Shown here: piece by piece, positions 12,658 through 63,666 of the stretch
Layout: each line of letters begins with the position of its first letter
Numbering within the stretch: the stretch's first letter is position 1
Assembly: GCA_963844825.1 (NCBI GenBank)
Contig: CAWJPQ010000011.1
Location: forward strand, 215,869 to 279,868
DNA length: 64,000 bases
Direction of reading: 5' to 3'
Origin: an uncultured Gammaproteobacteria bacterium
GTDB taxonomy: Bacteria; Pseudomonadota; Gammaproteobacteria; CAWJPQ01
Program-made: the position numbers and the translations under genes
Notes under the pieces: generated by a model
Databases searched by the model: none
What the model saw: only the letters and a program-made list of their open reading frames with translations
What the model was told of the DNA's origin: nothing

Positions 12658-13422
12658 TCAGGCACTGGGCGCGTCGCGCCAATGCACTGCAAAACCGTTG
12701 CTGTATCGCAAATCCACTATATCGATATCCCCGGCACGCTGGCTGAGGACCCGCCGGTAAAACCGGCTGAAGCGCTGCAGCCGCTTCTCGTAGTCCCGCT
12801 GGCCCAGGACCAGGGCGATGCCGTTGCTCAGCCCCAGGCGCCAGGCGTGGCGCTGATCGAGGGCCAGGGTTTGAACCCCCAGCCCCAGTACGCGCAAACG
12901 GAGCACGGCGGCCTTGTAGTGCTCGACCACCGCCCGCACATCGGCCCGGGGCCCCTGGAGGAGGGGCAGCGCCGGGCGCCCGCCGTCCTCCCGAGGCCGG
13001 AATACCTGCCCGGCGCTATTGACCAGGGCCCCGCCGCCCCAGCGCGCCAGGGGCCGCTGCTCGACGATGGCCACGCGCAGGGTATCCGGCCACACGCGGG
13101 TAACCGACGCCCGCCTCACCCACGGGAAGGCCTCCAGCGACCGCTGTATGGTGCCGGTATCCGCGGTGATGAAGTTCCCCGCCATGACCCCTCTGACCTT
13201 GTCGCGTATCTGATCGGGGCTCACGTGGTGAAGCCCGCCCCGAATCTCCACATACCGGACCGGCATGACCCGGGGATCTGTCAGACGCACCGCCCCCCAA
13301 GTGACGAGGGTCGCCGCCGCCACGAACAACAGGGACAGGGACACGCCGCGCACCGGGATGGAGCGCTTGCGGGCCGGCTCGATGCGGCGGTTGGCCTTCT
13401 TGCGCTTGATCAACCCCATCAA
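12658..13422 (-). CDS. ftsQ: cell division protein FtsQ (POTRA domain)
   Basis: 254 aa. N-terminal TM and POTRA region. Sits between ddl and ftsA. Confidence 0.9.
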   Translation of the reverse strand: MMGLIKRKKANRRIEPARKRSIPVRGVSLSLLFVAAATLVTWGAVRLTDPRVMPVRYVEIRGGLHHVSPDQIRDKVRGVMAGNFITADTGTIQRSLEAFPWVRRASVTRVWPDTLRVAIVEQRPLARWGGGALVNSAGQVFRPREDGGRPALPLLQGPRADVRAVVEHYKAAVLRLRVLGLGVQTLALDQRHAWRLGLSNGIALVLGQRDYEKRLQRFSRFYRRVLSQRAGDIDIVDLRYSNGFAVHWRDAPSA

Positions 13423-14450
13423 CCCCGCATCCTCTTACGGGCGCCGCCCCGGACACTGTCCGGCACGCCACCCGTGGGATCTTGAGTCGCGCCCCCGCGC
13501 TGCGGGCGATCCTCGCCCAGGCTGGTCTCGAGTATGCGCCCCGCCAGCTCGTTGAAGCCGATGCCCGCCTGGCGGGCGGCCTTGGGCACCAGGCTGTGAT
13601 CGGTCATCCCGGGCACGGTATTGACCTCCAGCAGCCACGCGCCGCCCGACCGGTCGCACATGAAATCGACACGCCCCCAACCGCTGCAGCCGAGCACGTC
13701 AAAGGCCTTCAACGCCATGGCCTGCAGCCGCTTCTCCGCTGCCTCGTCCAGGCCGCACGGGCAGTGATAAAGGGTATCGCCGGCGTCGTACTTGGCCGTG
13801 AAGTCATAGAAGCGCCGCGGGGTCTCGATGCGGATCAGGGGCAGGACCTCGCGGCCGACTACGGCGGCCGTGTACTCGTCGCCGTCGATCCACTGCTCGG
13901 CGATGACCAGGTCGTGGTAAGCACGCGCGGCCTGCCAGGCCGCCTGCAGCTGACCAGTCTCCGTAACCTGCGTCATGCCCAGGCTCGAGCCTTCGTGGAC
14001 CGGCTTGACGACCACGGGCAGCGTCAGGGCACCCACCTGGCCGGCGAGGTCACCCTCGGCGGCCAGCTCGACAAAGGCGGGCGTCGGCAGGGCATGGGCC
14101 TGCCACAGGCGTTTGGTGCGGGACTTGTCCATGGCCAGTGCCGAACCCAGCACCCCACTGCCGGTATACGGCAGACCCAGCACCTCCAGGGCGCCCTGGA
14201 TCACGCCGTCCTCGCCGCCGCGCCCGTGCAGCATGATCACCGCCCGGTCATAGCGCCCCCGGTCGAGGACGGCCAGGATATCCGCACCCACATCGACGCC
14301 ATGGGCATCCACCCCCAGGGCGCGCAGCGCCTCGGTGACGGCGGCGCCGCTGCGCAGGGAGATGTCGCGCTCGGCGGACCACCCGCCCATCAGCACGGCC
14401 ACTTTGCCGAAGCGGCGGGGATCACCCAGCTTGTCGCGGCTTGCGCTCAT
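13419..14450 (-). CDS. ddl: D-alanine--D-alanine ligase
   Basis: The ORF-track ORF (526 aa) is over-extended. Ddl starts at MSASRDKLGDPRRFGKVAVLMGGWSAERDISL (ATG 14450) and carries a ~25-aa C-terminal extension overlapping the ftsQ start. Confidence 0.9.
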   Translation of the reverse strand: MSASRDKLGDPRRFGKVAVLMGGWSAERDISLRSGAAVTEALRALGVDAHGVDVGADILAVLDRGRYDRAVIMLHGRGGEDGVIQGALEVLGLPYTGSGVLGSALAMDKSRTKRLWQAHALPTPAFVELAAEGDLAGQVGALTLPVVVKPVHEGSSLGMTQVTETGQLQAAWQAARAYHDLVIAEQWIDGDEYTAAVVGREVLPLIRIETPRRFYDFTAKYDAGDTLYHCPCGLDEAAEKRLQAMALKAFDVLGCSGWGRVDFMCDRSGGAWLLEVNTVPGMTDHSLVPKAARQAGIGFNELAGRILETSLGEDRPQRGGATQDPTGGVPDSVRGGARKRMRG

Positions 14451-14491
14451 CTCATCATTCCTTCCGCACCCGGCGGGCGGGCGCCGGCGCC

Positions 14492-15344
14492 CTAATACCA
14501 GGCATCGCGTTCCCCCACGATCCTGACCTCGGGGCGCAGCCGCACCCCGTGCACCTCCTCCACGGTACGGGCGACCGATTCGATCAGCTGCTCGATGTCC
14601 GCGGCCGTCGCCGTCCCGGTGTTGACAATGAAATTGGCATGCTTGGTGGAAACGCAGGCGCCGCCGACGCGGGCGCCCTTCAGGCCGCAGGCCTCGATCA
14701 GCCGCCCCGCATAGTCGCCAGGGGGGTTCCTGAAGACCGAGCCGCAGCTGTGCTGCTGCACGGGCTGGGACTCGGCGCGCTTGTTCAACAGGGCCTTGAT
14801 GCGCGCCTGACTGGCGTGACCCGTCGCCGGGGTCTAGCCTCAAATGGGCGGCGACGAACCACTCGTCGGCGGGACCCGTGACCTGCCGGTAAGTCGATGT
14901 GATACTCCGCCGGGCGGCGCACACGGCGCCGCCCATGGCGGTCGACGGTCTCGACGGCCTGCACCATCTCCCAGGTCTCGCGATTGAAGGCCCCGGCATT
15001 CATGGCCAGCGCCCCGCCCATGGTCCCCGGGATGCCGGCGAGAAACTCGGCGCCGGCCAGGTCGTGGCGCGCGCAAAAGCGCGCCGCCTTGGGACAGCTC
15101 ACCCCGGACTCGATGCGCACGATCCCGTCATCGCGCACCTCCAGGTCCCCAGCGCCCCGTAGGTATTAATCACGATGCCGTCGATCCCGCCGTCGCGCAC
15201 CAGCAGGTTGCTGCCCAGCCCTATCCACAGGAGGGTCTCGTCCCGCGGGGCCTGGCGCAGCAGGCCGCACAGATCGTCGATGTCCGCGGGCGTAAAGAAC
15301 AGCCGCGCGTTGCCGCCCACCCGCCACGAGGTGTGCCGCGACAT
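14492..15344 (-). CDS. murB: UDP-N-acetylenolpyruvoylglucosamine reductase MurB (short form), split over three reading frames by two indels
   Basis: N-terminal fragment ORF 15099..15344 ([17 protein letters not shown]...GLGSNLLV), middle ORF 14785..15138 (...[17 protein letters not shown]...) and C-terminal ORF 14492..14788 (...[19 protein letters not shown]...) together form a contiguous MurB. Frameshifts lie near 15100-15138 and 14785-14790. Confidence 0.8.
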
Positions 15345-15422
15345 GGGCTCGTCTGTGCCGCAGCTCGCCGCGCAGGCCTTGCGGCGTGAACGTATGGTGG
15401 CTTTGTCGTTCCATCAGACCGA

Positions 15423-16878
15423 TCATATGTGCTTGACTTTCGTATCCGTCGTCGACAGTTGGGCGGGCAGGCGCGCGGCCGCGGCGCCGATGTCCCCCGC
15501 CCCCATGGTCAGCAAGACATCGCCGCCGTGCAGGGCGTCGCGCAGCAAGCCGGGGAGTTGCGCCGCCTCGTCCACGTGGACCGGTGTCACCTTTCCCCAG
15601 GAGCGGATGGCGTTGGTCAGGGCCAGGGCGTCCGCCCCGACCACCGGCGCCTCCCCGGCGGGATAGACATTCAACAGGAACAGCGCATCCACGGCGGACA
15701 GGGTGGCCACGAAATCATTGAACAGGTCCCGGGTCCGGGAATAGCGGTGAGGCTGGAACACCGCCACGATGCGGCGCCCCGGCCAGCCCTGGCGCACCGC
15801 CTGCACGGTCGCGCTTATCTCGCGGGGATGGTGGGCGTAGTCGTCGATCATCAGCACCTCGCCCCGCGCGGTGGCGATCTCGCCGTGCACCTGAAAGCGC
15901 CGGGCGATCCCGCTGAATCCGGCCAGGGCGCGGCGTACCGCCGCATCGGCGACCCCCACCTCGTAGGCGACGGCCATCGCGGCCAGGGCGTTCAGGACAT
16001 TGTGATGGCCCGCCAGGTTGAGGCTCACCTCCAGCGGCTGATCGGACCCGGGGCGGCTGACCTTGAAGCGGGTCAGCGCCTTGTCCTGCACGATGTCGAA
16101 GCCGCGCACGTCCGCATGCTCGTCCAGGCCGTAGGTCAGCACGGGCTTGGAGATCAGGGGCAGGATATTGCGCACCACCGGGTCGTCCAGACATACCACC
16201 GCCAGGCCGTAGAACGGCAGGTGATGGAGGAATTCCACAAAGGTATCCCGCAGGCGGTCGACATCCCCCCCGTAGGTGGCCATGTGATCGGCGTCGATAT
16301 TGGTCACCACCGCCATCATCGGCTGCAGGTGAAGGAAGGAGGCATCGCTCTCATCGGCCTCGGCGACCAGGTACTTGCCGGTGCCCAGGCGGGCATTGCT
16401 GCCCGCGCTGTTGAGCTGCCCGCCGATCACGAAGGTGGGGTCGAGTCCCCTCCTCGGCGAGCAGGCTGGCGATCAGGCTGGTGGTGGTGGTCTTGCCGTG
16501 GGTGCCGGCCACCGCGATGCCGTGCCTGAAGCGCATCAGCTCGGCGAGCATCTCGGCGCGCGGCACCACCGGGATGCGCCGGCGCCGGGCGGCCGCAATC
16601 TCGGGGTTGTTGTGATCCACAGCGGTGGAGCGCACCACCACATCGCAACCTTCCACGTTACGCATGTCGTGGCCGATGGCGATGGGCACGCCCAATCGGC
16701 TCAGGCGGCGCGTCACGGCGTTTTCCTGGATATCCGAGCCGGTCACCACATAGCCCAGATTGGCCAGGACCTCGGCGATGCCGCCCATGCCGGCGCCGCC
16801 GATGCCGACGAAGTGAATGCGGTCGATGCGCCGGCGCGGCAGCCCCCAGGTGGATTGATTATTACGGTCATGGGACAT
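15423..16878 (-). CDS. murC: UDP-N-acetylmuramate--L-alanine ligase MurC, interrupted by a +1 indel near 16431-16445
   Basis: N-terminal part [38 protein letters not shown]...[20 protein letters not shown] (ATG 16878, GAGGA SD) is followed in another frame by [21 protein letters not shown]... (ORF 15423..16430). The shift sits at GAGGAGGGGACTCGACC. Confidence 0.88.
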
Positions 16879-16933
16879 GGGCAAATCCTCATTATCCGGC
16901 AACATGCCGAGTCTCTGGACCCTGGCGCCGACA

Positions 16934-18021
16934 CTAGCCATGGGCCGCCTCCATGCACAGTGATGCAATGCGCTCGGCGGCATCCGGCCTGGCCAGGCCA
17001 TTGGCCGAACAGGCCATATCGATCAGGCGCCGGCGCTGATCGGCGGCGGCGAAGCGCTCGAGCAGCTCCCCGAGGTAGCGGGGCGTCAGCGCCTGCTGCG
17101 ACACCACCAGCGCCGCGCCCGCCTCCACCAGGTGGGCGGCATTGCGGGTCTGATGATCATCCACGGCATGGGGATAGGGCACCAGGATGGCGCCGACCCC
17201 CGCGGCCGCCAGCTCCGCCACGGTCAGCGCCCCCGCCCGGCTGATCACCATGTCGGCCCAGGCGTAGGCCTGCGCCATGTCATCGATGAACGGCTCGATG
17301 CGCCATGCCTCGACCCCGGCCTGGGCGTAACACCGGCGGGTGAATTCCAGATGCCTTTCCCCGGTTTGATGCCAGACCTGGGGGCGGGTTTGGGGGGAAC
17401 CCCGGCCAGGGCCCGGGGCACCACCTCATTCAACGCGCGGGCGCCCAGGCTGCCGCCGATGACCAGCACGCGCAGCGCCCCCTCGCGCCCCGCCATGCGT
17501 TGCCGGGGCGGCTCAAGGGCCGTCAGTGCCGCGCGCACGGGATTGCCCACCACCTGGGCCCCGAACCGGTCGGGGAAGGTCCCCGGGAACGCGGTGAGGA
17601 CACGGGTCGCCAGGCGGGCCAGGAACCGGTTGGTCATGCCCGCCACGGCGTTTTGCTCGTGGACCAGCAGGGGAATGCGCAGCAGCCAGGTGGCGAGGCC
17701 GCCGGGGCCCGCGGCATACCCGCCCATGCCGAGGACCACCATGGGGCGGCGCCGGGCCATGACCGTGACCGCCTGGACCAGCGCCAGGGCGAGCTTGAAC
17801 GGGGCGGTCAGCCAACTGCCAAGGCCCTTGCCGCGCAGCCCGGCCACCGTCAGCCACTCGATGTCCAGCCCCTCCCGGGGCACGACCCGGGCCTCCAGGC
17901 CGCGACGCGTGCCCAGCCATACGATCTGCGCGCCCCGCTCCCGCAGCACCCGGGCCACCGCCAGGGCGGGGAATACGTGCCCGCCGGTGCCGCCCGCCAT
18001 GATCATGATGCGCATCACCAT
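16934..18021 (-). CDS. murG: UDP-GlcNAc:undecaprenyl-PP-MurNAc-pentapeptide GlcNAc transferase MurG, interrupted by indel(s) near 17280-17410
   Basis: N-terminal ORF 17245..18021 ([21 protein letters not shown]...) and C-terminal ORF 16934..17278 ([25 protein letters not shown]...) are in different frames. A G6 homopolymer (TGGGGGGAAC) lies at the junction. Confidence 0.88.
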
Positions 18022-19184
18022 GCCTTGACCCCCTTGAGGCTGGAGGCACCGCTCATGCGCGTCTCATGCTGCACCCGCAGCAACAGGGCAATGGCGATAC
18101 AGGTGGTGACGATACTGCTCCCGCCGTAGCTCATCAGCGGCAGGGTCAATCCCTTGGTGGGCAGCACCCCCATATTCACCCCGATATTGATGATCACCTG
18201 CAGCCCGATCCACATGGCCACCCCGTAGGCGATGTAGGCGGCGAACCACTTGCCGCACCGGCCGGCCGCATCGGCGATGACAAAGGCCCGCCATATCATG
18301 AATCCGAACAGCACGATCACCGCCACCACACCGGCCAGGCCCAGCTCTTCACCCAGCACGGCGACGAGAAAGTCCGTATAGGCCTCCGGCAGGTAGAACA
18401 GCTTCTGGACGCTCGCGCCGAGCCCCACCCCGAACCACTCGCCGCGGCCGAAGGCGATCAGGGCCTGGGTCAGTTGAAAACCGCTGGCAAACGGGTCGGA
18501 CCAGGGATTGAGAAACACGGTCAGGCGCTGGAACCGGTAAGGCGACAGCACGGCCACGGCGGCGAGACACGCCACCACCACCAGCAGGGCCAAGGCGAAG
18601 TGCCGCCACTTGACCCCGCCGAGAAACATCATGCCCAGGGCGGTGGTCAGGATAACGGCGGTCGCGCCGAAATCGGGCTCCAGCAGCAGCAGCAGGCTGA
18701 TCAGGCCCAGGATCACGATGGGCTCCAGGAGCCCCTTGGCGGTGATCTCGGTCCCGACCCGGCGGGCCAGATAGGCGCCGAGATAGAGCACCACGATCAG
18801 CTTCACCGGTTCCGAGACCTGCAATCGCACCACGCCCAGGGGCAGCCACCGGACACTGCCGTTGACCTCCCGGCCGACCCCCGGCAACAGGACGGCCACC
18901 AGGAGCACGATGCCGGCCACCAGCCACATGGTATTGGTCCGCTGCCAGAAACTGATGGGGATGCGCGTCACCGCCCCGGCCAGGGCAAGGCCGATGATGA
19001 TATAGGCGAACTGGCGGTAGAGGAAATAAAACGGCTGGCCGTGCTGGTGCTCGGCGACACTGATCGAGGCCGACCCGACCATGACCAGGCCCAGGGCGAG
19101 CAGCGCCAGCGCCGTCCCCAGCAGCGGCAGATCGATGCCGGCATAGATCGGCACGGTCCGCGCGGCACCGTTAGTCGCCATCAT
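18015..19184 (-). CDS. ftsW: peptidoglycan glycosyltransferase / lipid II flippase FtsW (SEDS family)
   Basis: 389 aa, ~10 TM helices, SEDS motifs. Sits between murD and murG. Confidence 0.93.
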   Translation of the reverse strand: MMATNGAARTVPIYAGIDLPLLGTALALLALGLVMVGSASISVAEHQHGQPFYFLYRQFAYIIIGLALAGAVTRIPISFWQRTNTMWLVAGIVLLVAVLLPGVGREVNGSVRWLPLGVVRLQVSEPVKLIVVLYLGAYLARRVGTEITAKGLLEPIVILGLISLLLLLEPDFGATAVILTTALGMMFLGGVKWRHFALALLVVVACLAAVAVLSPYRFQRLTVFLNPWSDPFASGFQLTQALIAFGRGEWFGVGLGASVQKLFYLPEAYTDFLVAVLGEELGLAGVVAVIVLFGFMIWRAFVIADAAGRCGKWFAAYIAYGVAMWIGLQVIINIGVNMGVLPTKGLTLPLMSYGGSSIVTTCIAIALLLRVQHETRMSGASSLKGVKAW

Positions 19185-50181: not shown

Positions 50182-50730
50182 ATGGCAAATAAAGACAGTC
50201 ATCTACTGATTGTTGCCTTGTTTGCGCTCCTGATGGGGGGGGGCTCCAGCGGCGCACTCGCGCAGACGGGGGATGCACAGGATCACAACAGGGTCGACGC
50301 ACTCTCCAACAGCCACGACGTAGACAGGTTCGATGATTCAATACGCCGGTGGATGAAGTCCCAGGCCGTGTACTGGCGCCGCCAGCAATACGCCGACATC
50401 GCCTCGCTTCAGGGCACCAAGGAATTTTACCGCAAGTCCCACCTGATCAACGCCCAGCTCTATATTCAATACGCCAAGGTGGCGCTGGGGATCAACGACA
50501 ACGGCAAGCAGGCGCTCGACGACCTTGACCACGCCATGTCCCTGATCAAAGAGGGCGAGAAGGGGGCCGGCAAGTCCGAAACGACCCAGATCAATCAACT
50601 GACCAGCGAGATCGACAGAATCAAGGGCAACATCAAACAGGCCTCGTCCCCGTCGGTGCAGGTTCAAAAGGAAAAGAAAGACCTGGACGGCGTCTTCATG
50701 GCCCTCAGGCACATCGTCGAGAAGGGTTAG
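50182..50730 (+). CDS. secreted hypothetical protein (signal peptide, helical)
   Basis: 182 aa. N-terminal signal MANKDSHLLIVALFALLMGGGSSGALA. No recognisable domain. Confidence 0.55.
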   Translation: MANKDSHLLIVALFALLMGGGSSGALAQTGDAQDHNRVDALSNSHDVDRFDDSIRRWMKSQAVYWRRQQYADIASLQGTKEFYRKSHLINAQLYIQYAKVALGINDNGKQALDDLDHAMSLIKEGEKGAGKSETTQINQLTSEIDRIKGNIKQASSPSVQVQKEKKDLDGVFMALRHIVEKG

Positions 50731-51366: not shown

Positions 51367-51775
51367 TGTATCTCTCCTATATGCACGAAACCGCTGTACA
51401 AGGTCAAACTCCCCCTGTGCCCGTTCGGATCACAACAGCGGTTACGCCAGAAACTCATTGACCCGGCTCCTCTCCATAAGCCCCCGAGCCCTTTCCCCAA
51501 AACCCTGCCCGAATCTGAACGTCACTGCGGCGGCGGTGACGGATCCGGGCCAACCTGCCAACCCGTTCGCGCCATCATAACATGTAACTCAAGGGGCGGC
51601 CGTGGGGGGCGGCGCCCACCACGGCCGTCCGCCTGTGGTACGATGGCGGCGCCGGCCGCCGTCCCCGCCGGGCGTACCTGGCACGCCCGGCGGGGAAAGT
51701 AAAAACGAGCGCGGCCGGCCTGAGATATGTATATAATAATAATGTAAATATTCTCAGAGTTCCCACGGCAATCTG

Positions 51776-54700
51776 TTGCATACCCGATACCCAACCGACA
51801 GCCAGGCAGCCACACCCTCCTCCCGGATAGGCAGGTCATCCAGTCCCCGCAAACCGACGCAGCAACCCATCGTGCACAAACCACCCAGGAACAACCCGTT
51901 GCGGGCCCTGCTGATCGCCGTCGCCGCCTGGCTCATTCCTCAATTGAGCCACGCCATCGTGCTGTACAACGTCACAGACCTGGGGGCGAACATCGCTCCG
52001 ACGGACATCAACGACAACGGGGTGATCGTGGGCTACGACACCGCCTCATCCCCAGCGGCGGCGATTTCTATCACAGGGGGGACAAGACAGACCCTGAGTT
52101 CCCTGGGCACCGCCAGCCGTGCCTTGAGCATCAACGAAGACGGCGAGATTGTCGGCTACACCACCAGCGGCTCGGCGCGACAGGCTATCCAGTGGAACCC
52201 CGACGGGACACACAGCAATTTCAACAAGTTGGGAACCCTGCGTGAGGCCCGCAGCAACACCTCCTTCGGCCACGTGGCGGGGGTGGCCCTCGACCCGGCA
52301 AGCGGGCACCCGCGCGCCTTCCTGTTCAACAGCCGGGTCAACAAGTTCCGCATCCTCGCCACCCTGGGCGGGGACACCGGCCACGCCAACCACGTCAATG
52401 ACCGGGGGGCCGTGGTCGGCGGCGCCCAAACCGCCTCCGGCAAGGTCAATGCCTTTCTCTACGACAACACCGGCCTGCAGAACCTCGGGACCCTGCAGGG
52501 ATTCGACCAAAGCGAGGCCATGTCGATCAATGACAGCGGCCAGGTGGTGGGCTGGGCCTATGTGGACCCCACGGTCCCGAGCACCCGGCGCGCCGTGTTC
52601 TACACCTCGACCCAGGGACAGCAGAACCTCGGCGTGGTGGCTGACGACATCGGCAGCGTCGCCAACGATATCAACAACAAGGGCCAGGCCGTCGGGTTCT
52701 CCACCAAGCTCAACAATGAAAACCGGGCCTTTGCCCTGAATGTCAGCGCCGCCAACATCTTCGCCCTTGTCGTTGACCCGACCAACATCGCCACCCTGTA
52801 CGCGGGGACAGAGCGCAGCGGTGTGTTCAAGACCACGGACGGAGGCGCCACCTGGCGGTCGATCAACACCGGCCTCGACAGCTTCGATGTGCGCACCGTC
52901 GCTGTCAATCCGAGCAACTCGTCCATCCTCTTCGCCGGGACCTCGGGGCAGGGCATCTACAAATCCGTCGACGGCGGGGACAACTGGAGCGCCGCCAGCA
53001 ACGGGCTGACCCACAAGGACGTGCGCGCCCTGGCCATCGACCCGCTGACGCCTTCGACGATCTATGCCGGCACCTTCGGCGGCGGCGTGTACAAGAGCGC
53101 CGATGAGGGCAACACCTGGACGCCGATCAATACGGGGATGGCCAATGCCAACGTGCAGGTGCTTGCCATCGACCCCTCCAACCCGGCAACCCTCTATGCC
53201 GGGACCGAGTTCAACGGCGTCTATCTGAGCAATGACTTCGGGAGCAGCTGGACCCCGATCAACAACGGCATCACCGACCGCAATATCTTCGATATCGCCA
53301 TCACCCCGGACAACACCTCGGTCCTTTACGTGGCCACCGAAGTGACCGGGATCTTCAAGAGCGTGGACGGCGGCTCGTCCTGGACCCCCTCGAATACCGG
53401 CCTGGCCAACCGCGACACCCGGTCCATCGTCTTCAGCCCGACGGACTCCTCGTTCCTGTCCGTCGGGACCCTCGGAAACGGTGTCTTCCAGAGCGGCGAC
53501 GGGGGCCAGAACTGGCAGGCCGCCACCGACAACGGCCTCACCAACCAGAACGTGCAGGTACTGACCGGTGATCCCTCATCCCAATCGACCCTGTACGCAG
53601 GGACCAAGGGCGGCGGCATCTTCAAGACCACCAACGGGGCGACGGATTGGCTTGCCGTCAACAACGGCTTTTCGGATATCAACGTGTTCAACCTGATCAT
53701 CGATACCACCGCCTCCCCGCCCGACATCTACGCCGGGACCTCCGGCGCCGGTGTGTTCAAGAGCACCGATAACGCGTCTTCCTGGTCCGCCTCGAACAGC
53801 GGGCTGACCAATTCCGCCATTCTGAGCATGGCGCAGGACCCCTCCCAGCCCGGCACCCTGTATGTGGGCACCTTCGACGGCGGCGTATTCAAGAGCACCG
53901 ACGGCGCCGCCAACTGGTCCAGCATCAACAACGGCCTGGGCGACCAGGATGTCCGAGCCCTGGCCGTCGACCCCAAGAATTCGAGCAACCTGTACGCCGG
54001 GACGGTCAGAAACGGCGTGTTCAAGAGCGCCGACGGCGGCGCCCACTGGAACCCCTCCAACAGCGGGCTGGCCGGCACCGACGTGCGGGTCCTCGCCATC
54101 GACCCGGACACCCCCGCCGTGGTCTACGCCGGCACCAACGACGGCGTCTACAAGAGCGGCAAGAGCGGCGCCACTTGGGCACCCGCCAACACCGGCCTGT
54201 CCGACAAGGATGTCCGCGCCTTGGCCCTCGCCCCCGGCGGCACCGCCGCCGTGCGGACCCTCTACGCCGGCACCTTCGGCGGCGGCGTATTCAAGAGCCA
54301 GGACGCGGGCGCCACCTGGACGGCGGTCAACACCGGCTTGAACAACCAGAATATCAACGACCTGCTGATCGATCCGGCCAACCCCCTGATCCTCTATGCC
54401 GCGACATACGGGGGCGGCATATTCAAGACGTCGACCGGCGCCGCCGTCTGGACTCCGATCAATACGGGCCTGCTCAATGAGACCATCATGGCCCTGGCCC
54501 TGGACGCCACCCAGTCCCGCCTCTACGCCGGTACCCTGGGCCGGGGTGTGTACGTCACGAATACCACCGCGATCAACTGGTCCAACAAGAATTCGGGGCT
54601 GACCGACAGCAGCACGCAGATGCAGGACCTGAACGACCTTATCCCATCGTCTCAAGGGTGGTCGCTGCAGAACGCCACCGCGGTCAACAACGTGGGCCAG

Positions 54701-55462
54701 ATCGTCGGCACGGGCCTGCTGAACAACCAACCCCACGGCTTCCTGCTGACACCGGTCAACGGCGTCAATACCGCCCAACTCGTGGTCACCCAGACCAACA
54801 CGCCGGATTCCGTCCAGAAGGACCTGCCGGTGACGTTCAACATCCGGGTGACCAATCGCGGCCCCGACACCGCGACCGGCCTGGTCTTCGTCGACTGGCT
54901 CCCGGACAACAGCACGTTTCAGTTCGTGGCCGCCTCCTCCGGCCTGTGCAAGGATCCGGTGGACGGCATCCTGATCTGCACGGTGGCCGAGCTCGGCCCC
55001 AACAGCACGAGCATCTTCAAGGTCATCGTCACACCGAACAAGTTTGATATCACCCTTCACAACCCGGTCAAGATCAAGGCCAACGAGGCGGACCCGGTCT
55101 TTTCCGACAACACCGTCAGCTCCACCTCCAAGGTCTCACCGTGTTTCATCGCCACCGCCGCCTACGGCTCGTATCTGGCGCCCGAGGTGGATGTCCTGCG
55201 GGGCTTTCGGGACCGGTACCTGCTGACCAACAGCCTCGGCAAAGCGTTCGTGGCGTTTTACTATGCGAACTCCCCGCCCGTTGCCGCCTATATCGCCAAG
55301 CACGATGCCCTGAGGTTCGTGGTACGAATGCTGCTCACCCCCCTCGTCTATGGCGTCAAGTATCCGTGGCTGGGATTCAGCCTGCTCGCCGCCCTGCTGC
55401 TCCTGACGGGCTACGCGATCTACCGCGGGCTCGCGCGGCGCAGCCCCCCCGCCCGCGCCTGA
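51776..55462 (+). CDS. giant predicted cell-surface protein: signal peptide + HAF repeats + ~14 Ycf48/BNR-like beta-propeller repeats + DUF11 domain + Cys-containing C-terminal module with TM anchor
   Basis: 1228 aa (alternative GTG start at 51872 gives [28 protein letters not shown]). N-terminal third has HAF-type repeats (INDxGxVVGxS...NAFLY...LGTLGG). Middle has ~14 tandem ~45-aa units ([40 protein letters not shown]). Then DUF11 ([11 protein letters not shown]...[17 protein letters not shown]). Then [28 protein letters not shown]... ending in a TM helix plus RR tail. Confidence 0.8.
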
Positions 55463-55866: not shown

Positions 55867-55873
55867 ACACGCC

Positions 55874-57596
55874 ATGCCCGTCCACAACAGCGAGATCGCC
55901 GCCATGTTCGACGAACTGGCCGATCTGCTCGAGATCGAGGGCGCCAACCCGTTTCGTATCCGCGCCTACCGCAACGCCGCACGGGTCATCGGCGGCCAGT
56001 CCACCAGCATGGCGGACCTGCTCAGCAGCGGCCACGACCTCACCCACCTGCCCGGCATAGGCGAGGACCTGGCGGAGAAGATCAAGACCATCGTCGAGAC
56101 CGGCAAGCTGCCCCTGCTCGAGGAGGTCGCCGGGCGGGTGCCGGCCGCCTTGAGCGAGCTGATGCGTATCGAGGGCCTGGGCCCCAAACGGGTCAAGGCC
56201 CTGTACGAGAAGCTGAAGGTCGACAGCGTCGAAGACCTCAAGCGCGCCGCCGAGGGCGGCCGGATTCAGGCGCTGGAGGGCTTCGGCAAGAAGACCGAGG
56301 ATATGATCAAGGCGCGCATCGCCGGCCTCGACGGTGCCGAACAACGCATCACCCTGAACACCGCCGAGGAATTCGCGGCCCCCCTGGCCGATTATCTGCA
56401 CCGCACCAAGGGGGTAAAGAAAGCTCACGATCGCAGGCAGTTTCCGGCGCCGCAAGGAGACGGTGGGCGACCTGGATATCCTCGTGACCGCCTCCAAGAA
56501 CTCCCCGGTGATGGAGCGCTTCACCGGCTACGAGGAGGTCGCCGAGGTCATCTCCCACGGCACGACCCGCTCCACGGTACGCTTGAGGACCGGGCTGCAG
56601 GTGGACCTGCGTGTGGTGCCGGAAGTGAGCTACGGCGCGGCGCTGCACTACTTCACCGGCTCCAGGGCCCACAACATCGCGGTGCGTACCCTGGGGGTCA
56701 AACGCAAGCTCAAGATCAACGAGTACGGGGTGTTCAAGGGCGACAAGCGCATCGCCGGCAAGACCGAGGAGGAAGTCTTCGAGCACGTGGGCCTGCCCTA
56801 CATCGAGCCCGAGCTGCGCGAGGACCGGGGCGAGATCGAGGCGGCGCAGCGCGGCCAATTACCCGACCTCATCACCGTCGACCAGATCCGCGGCGACCTG
56901 CATGCCCATACCAAGGCCACCGACGGGCACCATTCCCTGGCGCAGATGGCCGAGGCCGCCCGGCGCCGGGGATACGAATACCTGGCCATCACCGACCACT
57001 CCCAGCGCGTCACCGTCGCCAACGGCCTGGACAAGCGGCGCCTGCTGCAGCAGCTCAAGGAGATCGACCGCCTCAACGACAAGCTGGACGGCCTGCGCCT
57101 GCTCAAATCCATCGAGGTCGACATCCTGGCGGACGGCACCCTCGACCTGCCCGATGAGGTCCTGGAATCCCTGGATCTGACCGTGTGCTCGGTACACTCC
57201 AAATTCGACCTGCCCCCCAGGAAGCAGACCGAGCGCATCATCCGCGCCATGGACAACCGTCACTTCAATATCCTCGCCCATCCCAGCGGACGGATCCTCA
57301 ACGCGCGCCCCGCCTATGAAGTGGACCTGGAGCGCCTGATGGAGGCGGCCAAAGAGCGAGGGTGCATCTTCGAGGTCAACGGCCAGCCCAAGCGCATGGA
57401 TCTGACGGATACCGCCTGTAAGCTGGCCAAGGACATGGGCCTCAAGGTCGCCATCTCAACCGACGCCCACAGCGCCGAGCAGTTGGACTACATGCGCTAC
57501 GGGGTCTCCCAGGCCCGCCGCGGCTGGCTGGAAAAGGCGGACGTCATCAATACGTATCCCCTGACCAAACTGCTCAAGCAGCTGAAACGCTCATAG
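55874..57596 (+). CDS. polX: DNA polymerase/3'-5' exonuclease PolX (Pol beta-like core + C-terminal PHP domain), interrupted by an indel near 56400-56465
   Basis: N-terminal ORF 55874..~56440 (helix-hairpin-helix motifs, MPVHNSEIAAMFDELADLLEIEGANPFRIRAYRNAARVI) and ORF 56463..57596 (GDLDILV nucleotidyltransferase motif, then PHP His motifs) are in different frames. Confidence 0.85.
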
Positions 57597-59640: not shown

Positions 59641-60198
59641 ATGAACGCAATTACTTACCTCGATGACGAATTGACCGTGAACTTCAACAACCGGATGCTG
59701 CGGGCCACCTCGGCGATGGTACTGGTGGGTACTTTCTTGACGGGCATGTGGGTGGCCCCGGCCTGGATCTGCCTCGCCTCGGTCGCGAGCATCTATCTGA
59801 TGACCTCGGCCATCCTGGACAAAGGTCTGGCGGGCGCAATCCCCGAGGAGGTCGCGGCCGGGCACGGGTCCTCCGCTGAGACAAACGTGGGCAACGCCGG
59901 GCGGGTCGTGCGCGGCGCGGCCGCGGGGGTTGCCCTGGGCGGCGTCCTGGCTGATCCGCTGGTAAGTGCCTATGTGCTGAACGCGGTGGATATCTTCACC
60001 CTCAACACGGTTGGGGTCTATCTTGCCCTCACCGGCATTATCGCCTGGGACCCCATCAACGCCCTGTTCGGTGCGGGGACCAAGGGGGCCGAATCCGCCG
60101 CCCCGGCCCTGCGCCCCGCCGGCGTGGGTGCAGGCACCCTGCCCAATACCGGACGGGTGTCCGAGCCCCAGCCGCAGGGCGACCGCTACGCGGCCTGA
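59641..60198 (+). CDS. inner-membrane protein with two tandem DUF2892-like (YgaP-like) hairpin repeats, paralog 1
   Basis: AAGGAGAG SD. Two internal repeats (...SAILDKGLAGAIPEE / ...TGIIAWDPINALFG) resemble the DUF2892 G-x-CP motif with Cys replaced by Asp. Paralogous to 63163..63666. Confidence 0.6.
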   Translation: MNAITYLDDELTVNFNNRMLRATSAMVLVGTFLTGMWVAPAWICLASVASIYLMTSAILDKGLAGAIPEEVAAGHGSSAETNVGNAGRVVRGAAAGVALGGVLADPLVSAYVLNAVDIFTLNTVGVYLALTGIIAWDPINALFGAGTKGAESAAPALRPAGVGAGTLPNTGRVSEPQPQGDRYAA

Positions 60199-63073: not shown

Positions 63074-63109
63074 TTTAAGGTTGACTGTGTTTAATGGTCT
63101 CCAGTGAAG
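63074..63109 (+). promoter_or_regulatory. conserved upstream element B, 61 nt before paralog 2
   Basis: TTTAAGGTTGACTGTGTTTAATGGTCTCCAGTGAAGC matches element A. A further TTAAGGTTC copy lies at 63042..63050. Confidence 0.5.
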
Positions 63110-63162
63110 CGAGGAAAGTGAAGCCACGACTTGCGCCTTCAACTGATACTGGAGATACCGAC

Positions 63163-63666
63163 ATGACATACGCAACCAACATGAATGACACCACATTCAA
63201 CACCACCGGCCGCGTGCTGCGCGCCGCCTCCGGCATCGGCATCGCCTGCATCGCCCTGGCCGGCTACTGGTCACACCCCTGGGCGCTGTTCGCGCTGTTC
63301 ACCGTCAGCGTCTACCTGACAAGCTCGGCCATCGTCGGCAGGGGCCTGTGGGATGCCTTGTTCAAGCCCAGCGCCGATGACGCCGGCAGCAACGTCGCCC
63401 GCGCCGAGCGCGCCGGGCGCGGCCTCACCGCCGGGGTGACCATGGGCACGGTGATCAGCGGCGCCCTGCTGCTCGACCCGGTGGATGTGTTCGTGCTCAT
63501 GCTGGTCGGCGTGTACGCGGGGATGTCCGCCATCACCGGCTGGGACCCGGTCCGCGCCCTGTTCGCCGAGCGCCGCCACACGGCGAACGCCGGCCTGACC
63601 CGCCCCATCCCCGTCACCGTCGGCCAGACCGGCATGGGTCAGGTTGCCGGCAAGAACGCGGCGTAA
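63163..63666 (+). CDS. inner-membrane protein with two tandem DUF2892-like hairpin repeats, paralog 2
   Basis: Start MTYATNMNDTTFNTTGRVLRAAS (ATG 63163, GGAGA SD). Repeats ...SAIVGRGLWDALFK / ...SAITGWDPVRALFA. Collinear with paralog 1. Confidence 0.6.
   Translation: MTYATNMNDTTFNTTGRVLRAASGIGIACIALAGYWSHPWALFALFTVSVYLTSSAIVGRGLWDALFKPSADDAGSNVARAERAGRGLTAGVTMGTVISGALLLDPVDVFVLMLVGVYAGMSAITGWDPVRALFAERRHTANAGLTRPIPVTVGQTGMGQVAGKNAA

Follow-up and report, generated by a model that had tools for sequence, protein, structure and literature searches.

A predicted three-propeller, membrane-anchored protein of an uncultured gammaproteobacterium and its widespread CFI-box C-terminal module

The locus and its protein family

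A stretch of 64,000 nucleotides (nt) from an uncultured Gammaproteobacteria bacterium (assembly GCA_963844825.1, contig CAWJPQ010000011.1, positions 215,869 to 279,868 of the forward strand), here called the window, contains on its plus strand a long uninterrupted open reading frame (ORF) at 51776..55462, and it is this target gene, and in particular the C-terminal tail of its product, that are the subject of the present analysis. The encoded protein has a signal peptide followed by HAF repeats, BNR/Asp-box blades and a DUF11 domain, and then a tail of the type named CFI-box-CTERM in NCBIfam. Hidden Markov model (HMM) searches with Pfam returned Sortilin-Vps10 (132.8 bits, in 4 stretches), DUF11 (54.3 bits) and BNR, and an NCBIfam search returned the HAF repeat TIGR02913 (93.8 bits versus a cutoff of 22.65), in multiple copies after the signal peptide. 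Together with hydrophobicity, these matches left essentially intact the module list of a first-pass annotation, which had been made from the letters and their ORF translations and which included a cleavable signal peptide, a DUF11 domain and a C-terminal transmembrane (TM) helix plus RR. An AlphaFold2 (AF2) model, computed from an 11-sequence family alignment and with a mean predicted local distance difference test score (pLDDT) of 78, predicted three beta-propellers and an immunoglobulin (Ig)-like spacer in what would be an exported, membrane-anchored protein.

The same annotation had considered this combination of modules to be unusual, a view that did not survive comparison with other genomes. 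The whole architecture, tail included, was found in at least ten proteins of gammaproteobacterial metagenome-assembled genomes (MAGs) that share 29-69% identity with the target. P0001-P0004 are 62-69% identical to it over 97-99% coverage, and P0015, P0035, P0045, P0046, P0060 and P0065 are 29-38% identical over 95-99% coverage. It was also present at five species-representative MAG loci, from Chromatiaceae (L008, L009), Candidatus Tenderia (L010) and unclassified Gammaproteobacteria (L011, L012). All of the modules carry database names already and the protein joins a conserved family, and for the target gene alone the outcome is mostly a tidying up: named modules, a conserved family and an ordinary locus.

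The full-length homologues bear on the possibility, also named in the first-pass annotation as one that would refute it, that the ORF is an assembly chimera, or alternatively an over-extended ORF fused by a frameshift. Such an artefact would be in keeping with the frameshift-like breaks elsewhere in the window (in the PolX gene at about 56409-56422, and in the split murG and murC), which suggest indel errors. However, the homologues are collinear with the target at both levels of identity, and the same gene occurs in the same neighbourhood in independent ENA and Logan assemblies. Synteny is kept with two loci: L001, which encodes the 63%-identical homologue P0003, and L005, a near-identical metagenomic copy. 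On the basis of the homologues and this synteny the idea was rejected, and we regard it as extremely improbable.

The maximal ORF begins at TTG 51776 and encodes 1228 amino acids (aa), but the true start is most likely GTG 51872, which gives a protein of 1196 aa, because the N-termini of the homologues and the called starts of L005 and P0003 agree on it. Homologue N-termini, e.g., MRTPTTHFSFTRLLLITALCLLPGMGRA, align to the N-terminus of the target at the GTG start and leave the extra 32 residues unmatched; in L005 the gene caller picks the same GTG, and P0003 begins at the aligned GTG. Residue numbers below refer to the 1196-aa protein unless the 1228-aa translation is named, and the coordinates of all features are collected in Table 1. 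The core of the signal peptide has a Kyte-Doolittle value above 1.6, with equivalent N-termini in the homologues, and AF2 scored the signal peptide at a pLDDT below 50. It is one of two hydrophobic segments in the whole protein, the other being the C-terminal TM helix. The mature protein has exactly three cysteines: C1026 and C1036 in the DUF11 domain, and C1091, which opens the CFI-box.

Table 1. Features of the target gene, its product and its upstream region (positions in the window).
Feature	Position	Strand	Basis
Two GC-rich hairpins, 51594-51630 and 51662-51696	51594..51696	+	Inverted repeats I1, I3
AT-rich block (GATATGTATATAATAATAATGTAAATATTCT) with TATAAT	51725..51762	+	Sequence; kept in L005, partly in L001
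Probable coding sequence: 1196 aa plus stop, from GTG	51872..55462	+	Aligned GTG called as start in two relatives
Sec-type signal peptide, aa 1-28, predicted cleavage after SHA	51872..51955	+	Basic n-region, hydrophobic core 12-32
Six HAF repeats, aa ~29-300	51956..52771	+	TIGR02913; repeat cores
BNR/Asp-box blades 1-7, aa ~301-612, predicted first GH74-like 7-bladed propeller	52772..53707	+	Pfam, AF2, Foldseek, motif scan
BNR/Asp-box blades 8-14, aa ~613-925, predicted second GH74-like 7-bladed propeller	53708..54646	+	Pfam, AF2, Foldseek, motif scan
Seventh HAF repeat, aa ~926-962, after the BNR propellers	54647..54757	+	Repeat core aa 938
DUF11/CLIPPER Ig-like domain, aa 970-1085	54779..55126	+	PF01345
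CFI-box, aa 1091-1159: motif with unpaired Cys, then three conserved helices	55142..55348	+	NF041770
TM helix, aa 1165-1184, and basic C-terminal tail	55364..55459	+	Hydrophobicity; helical in both AF2 models

The propeller head and its spacer

Most of the protein consists of repeats. A motif scan found fourteen SxDxGxxW units between aa 305 and 925, spaced 43-47 aa apart (period 44), and the AF2 model of this BNR region has 14 blades arranged as 2 x 7. In a Foldseek search of the PDB with the model, the top 25 matches were GH74 xyloglucanases/OXG-RCBH (E about 1e-28 to 1e-23, 16-19% identity), and PDB sequence searches with phmmer also favoured BNR glycosyl hydrolases/GH74. The estimate of about 14 BNR units, enough for two 7-bladed propellers, thus held up well. 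A single 10-bladed propeller of the Sortilin/Vps10 type was considered and rejected: PF15902 scored above its Pfam cutoff, but the profile was matched piecemeal (best stretch, positions 3-83 of 446) and the model gives 2 x 7 blades. The Ycf48 model NF010237 reached 61.7 bits versus an equivalog cutoff of 326. Ycf48/HCF136 has BNR-type 7-bladed repeats, similar to the target at the repeat level (PDB 2xbg and 5ojr, E about 1e-6), but its approximately 330 aa make up just one propeller, and the target has no photosynthetic context.

The likeness to GH74 xyloglucanases/OXG-RCBH (1sqj, 2ebs, 5fkq, 2cn2), which also consist of two tandem 7-bladed BNR/Asp-box propellers, makes it reasonable to ask if the target is an active glycoside hydrolase tethered in the envelope, either GH74-like or of the F510_1955 type. 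In addition to the fold and sequence matches, the NCBIfam model NF045728, "F510_1955 family glycosylhydrolase", gave 238.9 bits versus a curated cutoff of 175, so that an automatic pipeline could name the target a glycosylhydrolase. However, that score is a sum over 9 stretches, the best of which covers profile positions 73-175 of 246 and not the profile end-to-end, and this looks like the work of internal repeats, not like a true equivalog match. The low identity to the GH74 enzymes also speaks against activity, as do the residues at the catalytic position. In the alignment, the GH74 catalytic Asp (D35 of 1sqj, within YARTDIGG) falls on the residue that follows "AGT" in the blades, which in blades 1-14 is E, S, F, E, E, L, K, S, F, V, N, F, Y and L. 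In blade 1 the E of the target is replaced by Q in P0002-P0004 and by a non-acidic residue in P0015 (E/Q/S across the family), and in blade 8 the residue is S. The GH74 Asp pair (D35/D465 in OXG-RCBH, one per propeller) is therefore not matched, in a sequence-level comparison for which the repeat register is ambiguous. Moreover, there are no sugar-utilisation genes in the neighbourhood of the target. Because the residue aligned to the GH74 Asp varies among blades and homologues, the double propeller would seem to be non-catalytic, if not with certainty, and an active hydrolase is improbable. The target would further differ from GH74 enzymes in that its double propeller sits inside a HAF-repeat domain and is tethered to a membrane.

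The HAF repeats were undercounted at first: HAF is present as had been claimed, but instead of about five repeats there are six N-terminal ones, with cores at aa 46, 87, 129, 175, 219 and 267, plus a seventh beyond the BNR propellers (motif scan). In the N-terminal HAF region each repeat has four strands (DSSP) and is modelled as a blade, with pLDDT of about 80-93, and the seventh (aa 930-961, pLDDT 91-93) is among the best-scored parts of the AF2 model. Every family member has it, even the variants of ~885 aa (P0080, P0100, P0108, P0111) that have about half as many BNR blades and yet retain both the N-terminal HAF repeats and the extra one after the BNR region. That the shorter variants keep both HAF parts fits with a propeller inserted within a propeller: judging from the model, the seven HAF repeats (6+1) probably form one 7-bladed propeller that is closed by repeat 7, with the BNR propellers probably an insertion in it. 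A double propeller inserted into another propeller would be a minor structural curiosity.

HAF proteins often carry PEP-CTERM tags. Like the target, the extracellular HAF/DUF3466 proteins have TIGR02913 repeats after a signal peptide, and DUF3466 is assigned in precomputed Pfam matches, where it is marked as faint, to the HAF region of the distant homologue P0065. They differ from it in their tails, e.g., a DUF3466 protein of Shewanella bears a GlyGly-CTERM tag (PMC3237569) and the target ends in a CFI-box, and in that the HAF repeats of the target are broken by the 625-aa double propeller.

Between the head and the tail is a single DUF11 domain (PF01345; gathering score 24.6; profile positions 2-113 of 114). 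Pfam has renamed this family CLIPPER, and its members have a CnaA-like Ig fold and act as stalks in fibrillar adhesins (PMC12617251). Disulfides are common in the CLIPPER members of Pseudomonadota (PMC12617251), and the Cys1026-Cys1036 pair, which is invariant in the target's family, probably forms one. Some CLIPPER domains have a Lys-Asn isopeptide bond whose formation is catalysed by an Asp (K715/D748/N806 in PDB 9IFR), and others are without it (PMC12617251). By spacing only, the positions of the Asp (VDWLP) and the Asn (HN) are conserved in the family, but at the Lys position, some 34 residues ahead of the Asp, nearly all members have Gln or Thr, and by this criterion an isopeptide bond is unlikely in the target. 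A search of the PDB with the DUF11 domain sequence did not retrieve 9IFR. The domain thus resembles the CLIPPER stalks of fibrillar adhesins (9IFR; PMC12617251) as an Ig-like spacer between head and anchor with a Cys pair, but it is present as a single copy and not as a tandem stalk.

The CFI-box tail and how the protein may work

The tail, which the first-pass annotation could not place in a named family, matches NF041770 over profile positions 1-69 of 69 with 105.4 bits versus a cutoff of 40 (aa 1123-1191 of the 1228-aa translation), and to that extent one part of the refuting condition set in the first-pass annotation, a described C-terminal tag, applies. It opens at Cys1091 (window position 55142), 106 aa from the C-terminus, and the basic residues after the TM helix include RGLARR. 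When the tail was modelled by itself its overall pLDDT was 80, with the CFIATAAYG motif below 50. No Pfam family matched the tail, nor did any PEP-CTERM, GlyGly-CTERM or MYXO-CTERM model of NCBIfam/TIGRFAM at E<=0.01, and no second CFI-box was found in the 64-kb window.

Other proteins that share the tail, a search for which had been suggested from the outset, proved to be very numerous. In a scan of one genome per GTDB species at least 584 matches to CFIATAAY were confirmed by tblastn, and those listed come from Nitrospirota, Geobacteraceae, Syntrophales, Desulfuromonadales, Gammaproteobacteria, Nitrospinae and Bacillota (Desulfoscipio, Clostridium). CFI-box genes were also present in MAGs assigned to two cultured species, Desulfoscipio geothermicus and Thiohalomonas denitrificans. 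A tail profile built from 121 tails was run against 1.84 billion cluster representatives (50% clustering), and its matches at E<=1e-3 numbered 29,722, of which 23,909 had E<=1e-10, with the domain C-terminal in nearly all. The CFI-box is attached to unrelated passengers, including PKD, fn3, DUF11 and BNR domains. NCBI already labels many MAG proteins as CFI-box-CTERM. Among 85 CFI-box tails from other genomes that were compared, the consensus motif is near-invariant, a TM helix and basic residues come after it, the distance from Cys to C-terminus has a median of 102 aa, the passengers span sizes of about 100 to 3430 aa, and identity across phyla is 50-70%. The CFI-box Cys is the sole Cys in 60/85 tails, and in 56/85 it is directly preceded by Gly, usually within a GGGGG linker. 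The target conforms in the C-terminal site, motif, TM helix and basic residues. It departs from most of the others, which have the GGGGG linker and PKD, fn3 or Ig-like passengers, in its HAF/BNR/CLIPPER head and, as in its family generally, in having S-P, D-R or D-K and not GGGGG before the Cys.

There were some matches of a different form. A minority (P0242, P0243, P0266, P0273 and similar) carry the CFI-box internally (608-719 of 1142 aa or 132-251 of 533 aa, for instance), some of them in two copies. Read-through fusion of adjacent CFI-box genes may account for these matches, or they may be genuine, in which case they would argue against a purely C-terminal sorting role. At L019 (548-2149, plus strand), in a Nitrospirota MAG, the ORF runs about 270 aa past the CFI-box, TM helix and basic cluster, an extension that may be a true variant or may stem from fusion with an adjacent gene. 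CFI-box proteins that are short and stand alone (P0160, P0222 and others) resemble truncated gene calls and were set aside as uninformative.

The known C-terminal sorting tags are far shorter, about 25-35 aa, than the CFI-box with its approximately 106 aa from Cys to end. They are tripartite, i.e., a motif, a TM helix and a basic cluster (PMC3237569), and the CFI-box shares with those of the PEP-CTERM/exosortase, GlyGly-CTERM/rhombosortase and LPXTG/sortase systems the C-terminal motif, the TM helix, the basic cluster and the many unrelated passengers. It is therefore fair to consider that CFI-box-CTERM is a true sorting or processing signal, such that a membrane enzyme would recognise the invariant motif and either cut the protein at or near the Cys or modify the Cys, e.g., by lipidation or by covalent linkage to an envelope polymer, and thereby produce a surface protein of the kind that bears PEP-CTERM, GlyGly-CTERM or MYXO-CTERM, with the part of a binding propeller head left unchanged. 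The strictly C-terminal position in nearly all matches, the motif with its often sole Cys, the Gly-rich linker ahead of it and the variety of passengers are all as would be expected of such a signal. So is the fact that the AF2 monomer packs its most conserved motif with the lowest confidence, as for a recognition site. The arrangement of CFI-box genes side by side in twos or threes (L027, L063, L068) and the GlyGly-CTERM tag of the Shewanella DUF3466 protein (PMC3237569), beside the faint DUF3466 match in P0065, could be added to these.

Against a sorting signal is the position of the motif, which in the tags described in PMC3237569 directly precedes the TM helix and in the CFI-box is separated from it by about 65 conserved helical residues. 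Neighbour-gene clustering over 80 CFI-box loci revealed no common partner and no adjacent sorting enzyme. The largest cluster (13 loci) has a CFI-box protein itself as representative (L043, 639 aa), and the next two, of 9 loci each, correspond to a response-regulator-like protein and to one of ~200 aa. Scanned against Pfam, ten unassigned ORFs of the window yielded no candidate for an exosortase, rhomboid or CPBP protein, and the dedicated sorting system envisaged in the first-pass annotation turned up neither in the scanned window ORFs nor in the 80 CFI-box loci or 7 family loci. As evidence these negatives weigh little, as sorting enzymes are often unlinked to their substrates. A literature search for CFI-box-CTERM found no mention of it and no published function, partner or structure. 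On balance, a genuine sorting or processing signal is a possibility to be taken seriously, if not the one we favour.

The reading that we prefer, at a probability of roughly 0.6, is that the target is a Sec-exported, non-catalytic binding protein, anchored in a membrane at its C-terminus, with a three-propeller head and an Ig-like spacer. The protein would be exported via Sec into the envelope of a diderm bacterium with lipopolysaccharide (LPS); lptA and lptB are next door to the target gene. The signal peptide would be removed and about 1,060 residues would fold outside the cytoplasmic membrane, with the seven HAF repeats building one propeller, the GH74-like BNR pair inserted in it, and the single CLIPPER domain serving as a spacer. 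The CFI-box module (the Cys motif, three juxtamembrane helices, TM helix and a basic cytoplasmic tail) would then tie the protein to the cytoplasmic membrane, the TM helix being predicted to have its N-terminus out and C-terminus in, and the propellers would bind a ligand, probably a glycan, instead of hydrolysing it. An adhesin or S-layer-like role, as was proposed earlier, is possible.

Several points weigh against a binding protein that is simply anchored. With an inner-membrane anchor, the large adhesin-like head would stay within the diderm periplasm, an awkward location for it. The nesting of the propellers is read from the pattern of secondary structure and from pLDDT, and the NF045728 score does exceed its cutoff. 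To our knowledge, the propellers have no known ligand. Then there is the CFI-box, whose identity across phyla far exceeds what a plain anchor needs, and the fact that cleavage has been proposed for PEP-CTERM and GlyGly-CTERM, which likewise combine a TM helix with a basic cluster (PMC3237569).

The conservation of the tail, its unpaired Cys, the Gly linker and the poorly packed motif together suggest recognition by a partner, or chemistry. We would tentatively propose, while considering it clearly less probable than the anchored binding protein, that the CFI-box is the recognition or attachment module of a new sorting or covalent-tethering system that uses an unpaired extracytoplasmic Cys for cleavage, lipidation or cross-linking. 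Such a system would operate in both monoderms and diderms on tens of thousands of surface proteins, with the target as a large diderm substrate. The remaining value of the locus is in CFI-box-CTERM, a module that is widespread (about 24,000 representatives), conserved, and has an invariant unpaired Cys predicted to be outside the membrane; if it is a true sorting or attachment signal, it adds a system beside those of sortase, exosortase and rhombosortase.

Upstream region and gene neighbourhood

The lack of a good Shine-Dalgarno sequence and the AT-rich stretch upstream of the gene, both noted in the first-pass annotation, are visible on inspection of the sequence, and neither TTG 51776 nor GTG 51872 is preceded by a Shine-Dalgarno sequence. 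The AT-rich block is the probable promoter region by virtue of its sequence, and as a promoter it would give a 5' leader of roughly 110-130 nt; a scan for consensus promoters and terminators did not call it, as there was no match to a -35 element. The two hairpins (arms of 18 nt, 89% complementary, in I1 and of 17 nt, 94%, in I3) are in the 647-nt intergenic region between the DUF302 gene and the target gene, a region that is largely conserved in L005, with an 11-nt insertion there beside I1. An Rfam scan of this 5' intergenic region, in which a riboswitch for cyclic di-GMP or another ligand was sought, gave only a chance sub-threshold match.

The gene order in the window, i.e., ABC transporter, DUF4340, lptB, lptA, metallophosphoesterase, a ~180-aa protein, DUF302, target and PolX, is kept in L001 with one extra PRC-domain gene. 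Although the neighbourhood had been described as accessory-looking, upstream of the target it is conserved and core-like. Over seven full-length family loci, neighbour clustering found the target gene alone to be common to all, with two lineage-specific synteny groups. The window also holds secA, ftsZ, ftsA and mur genes, as read from ORF translations rather than HMM matches. Two genes upstream of the target is a 182-aa ORF (50182-50730, plus strand) with a signal-peptide-like N-terminus and no Pfam match; it has the same place in L001 (180 aa) and L005 (182 aa) and is absent from the more distant family loci.

Downstream of the target, the PolX/PHP gene (55871-57596, plus strand) is split by a frameshift, with residues 30-213 of the L001 protein in frame 2 (55871-56422) and residues 209-602 in frame 3 (56409-57590), and is either a pseudogene or the product of an assembly indel error. 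The cell-wall synthesis genes at ~13400-18030 on the minus strand, likewise named from their translations, look fragmented as well: the MurG-like N- and C-terminal ORFs overlap at 17245-17278, a MurC-like ORF (15423-16430) is without its N-terminus, and a MurB-like N-terminus is present as an 81-aa ORF (15099-15344). Because these broken genes are essential, the breaks suggest assembly indel errors, perhaps from long reads, rather than real pseudogenes. Beyond PolX the window is less conserved, and two ORFs there, each about 185-190 aa long (59641-60198 and 63094-63666, both on the plus strand and about 3 kb apart) match the YgaP-like transmembrane domain PF11127; they may be paralogues.

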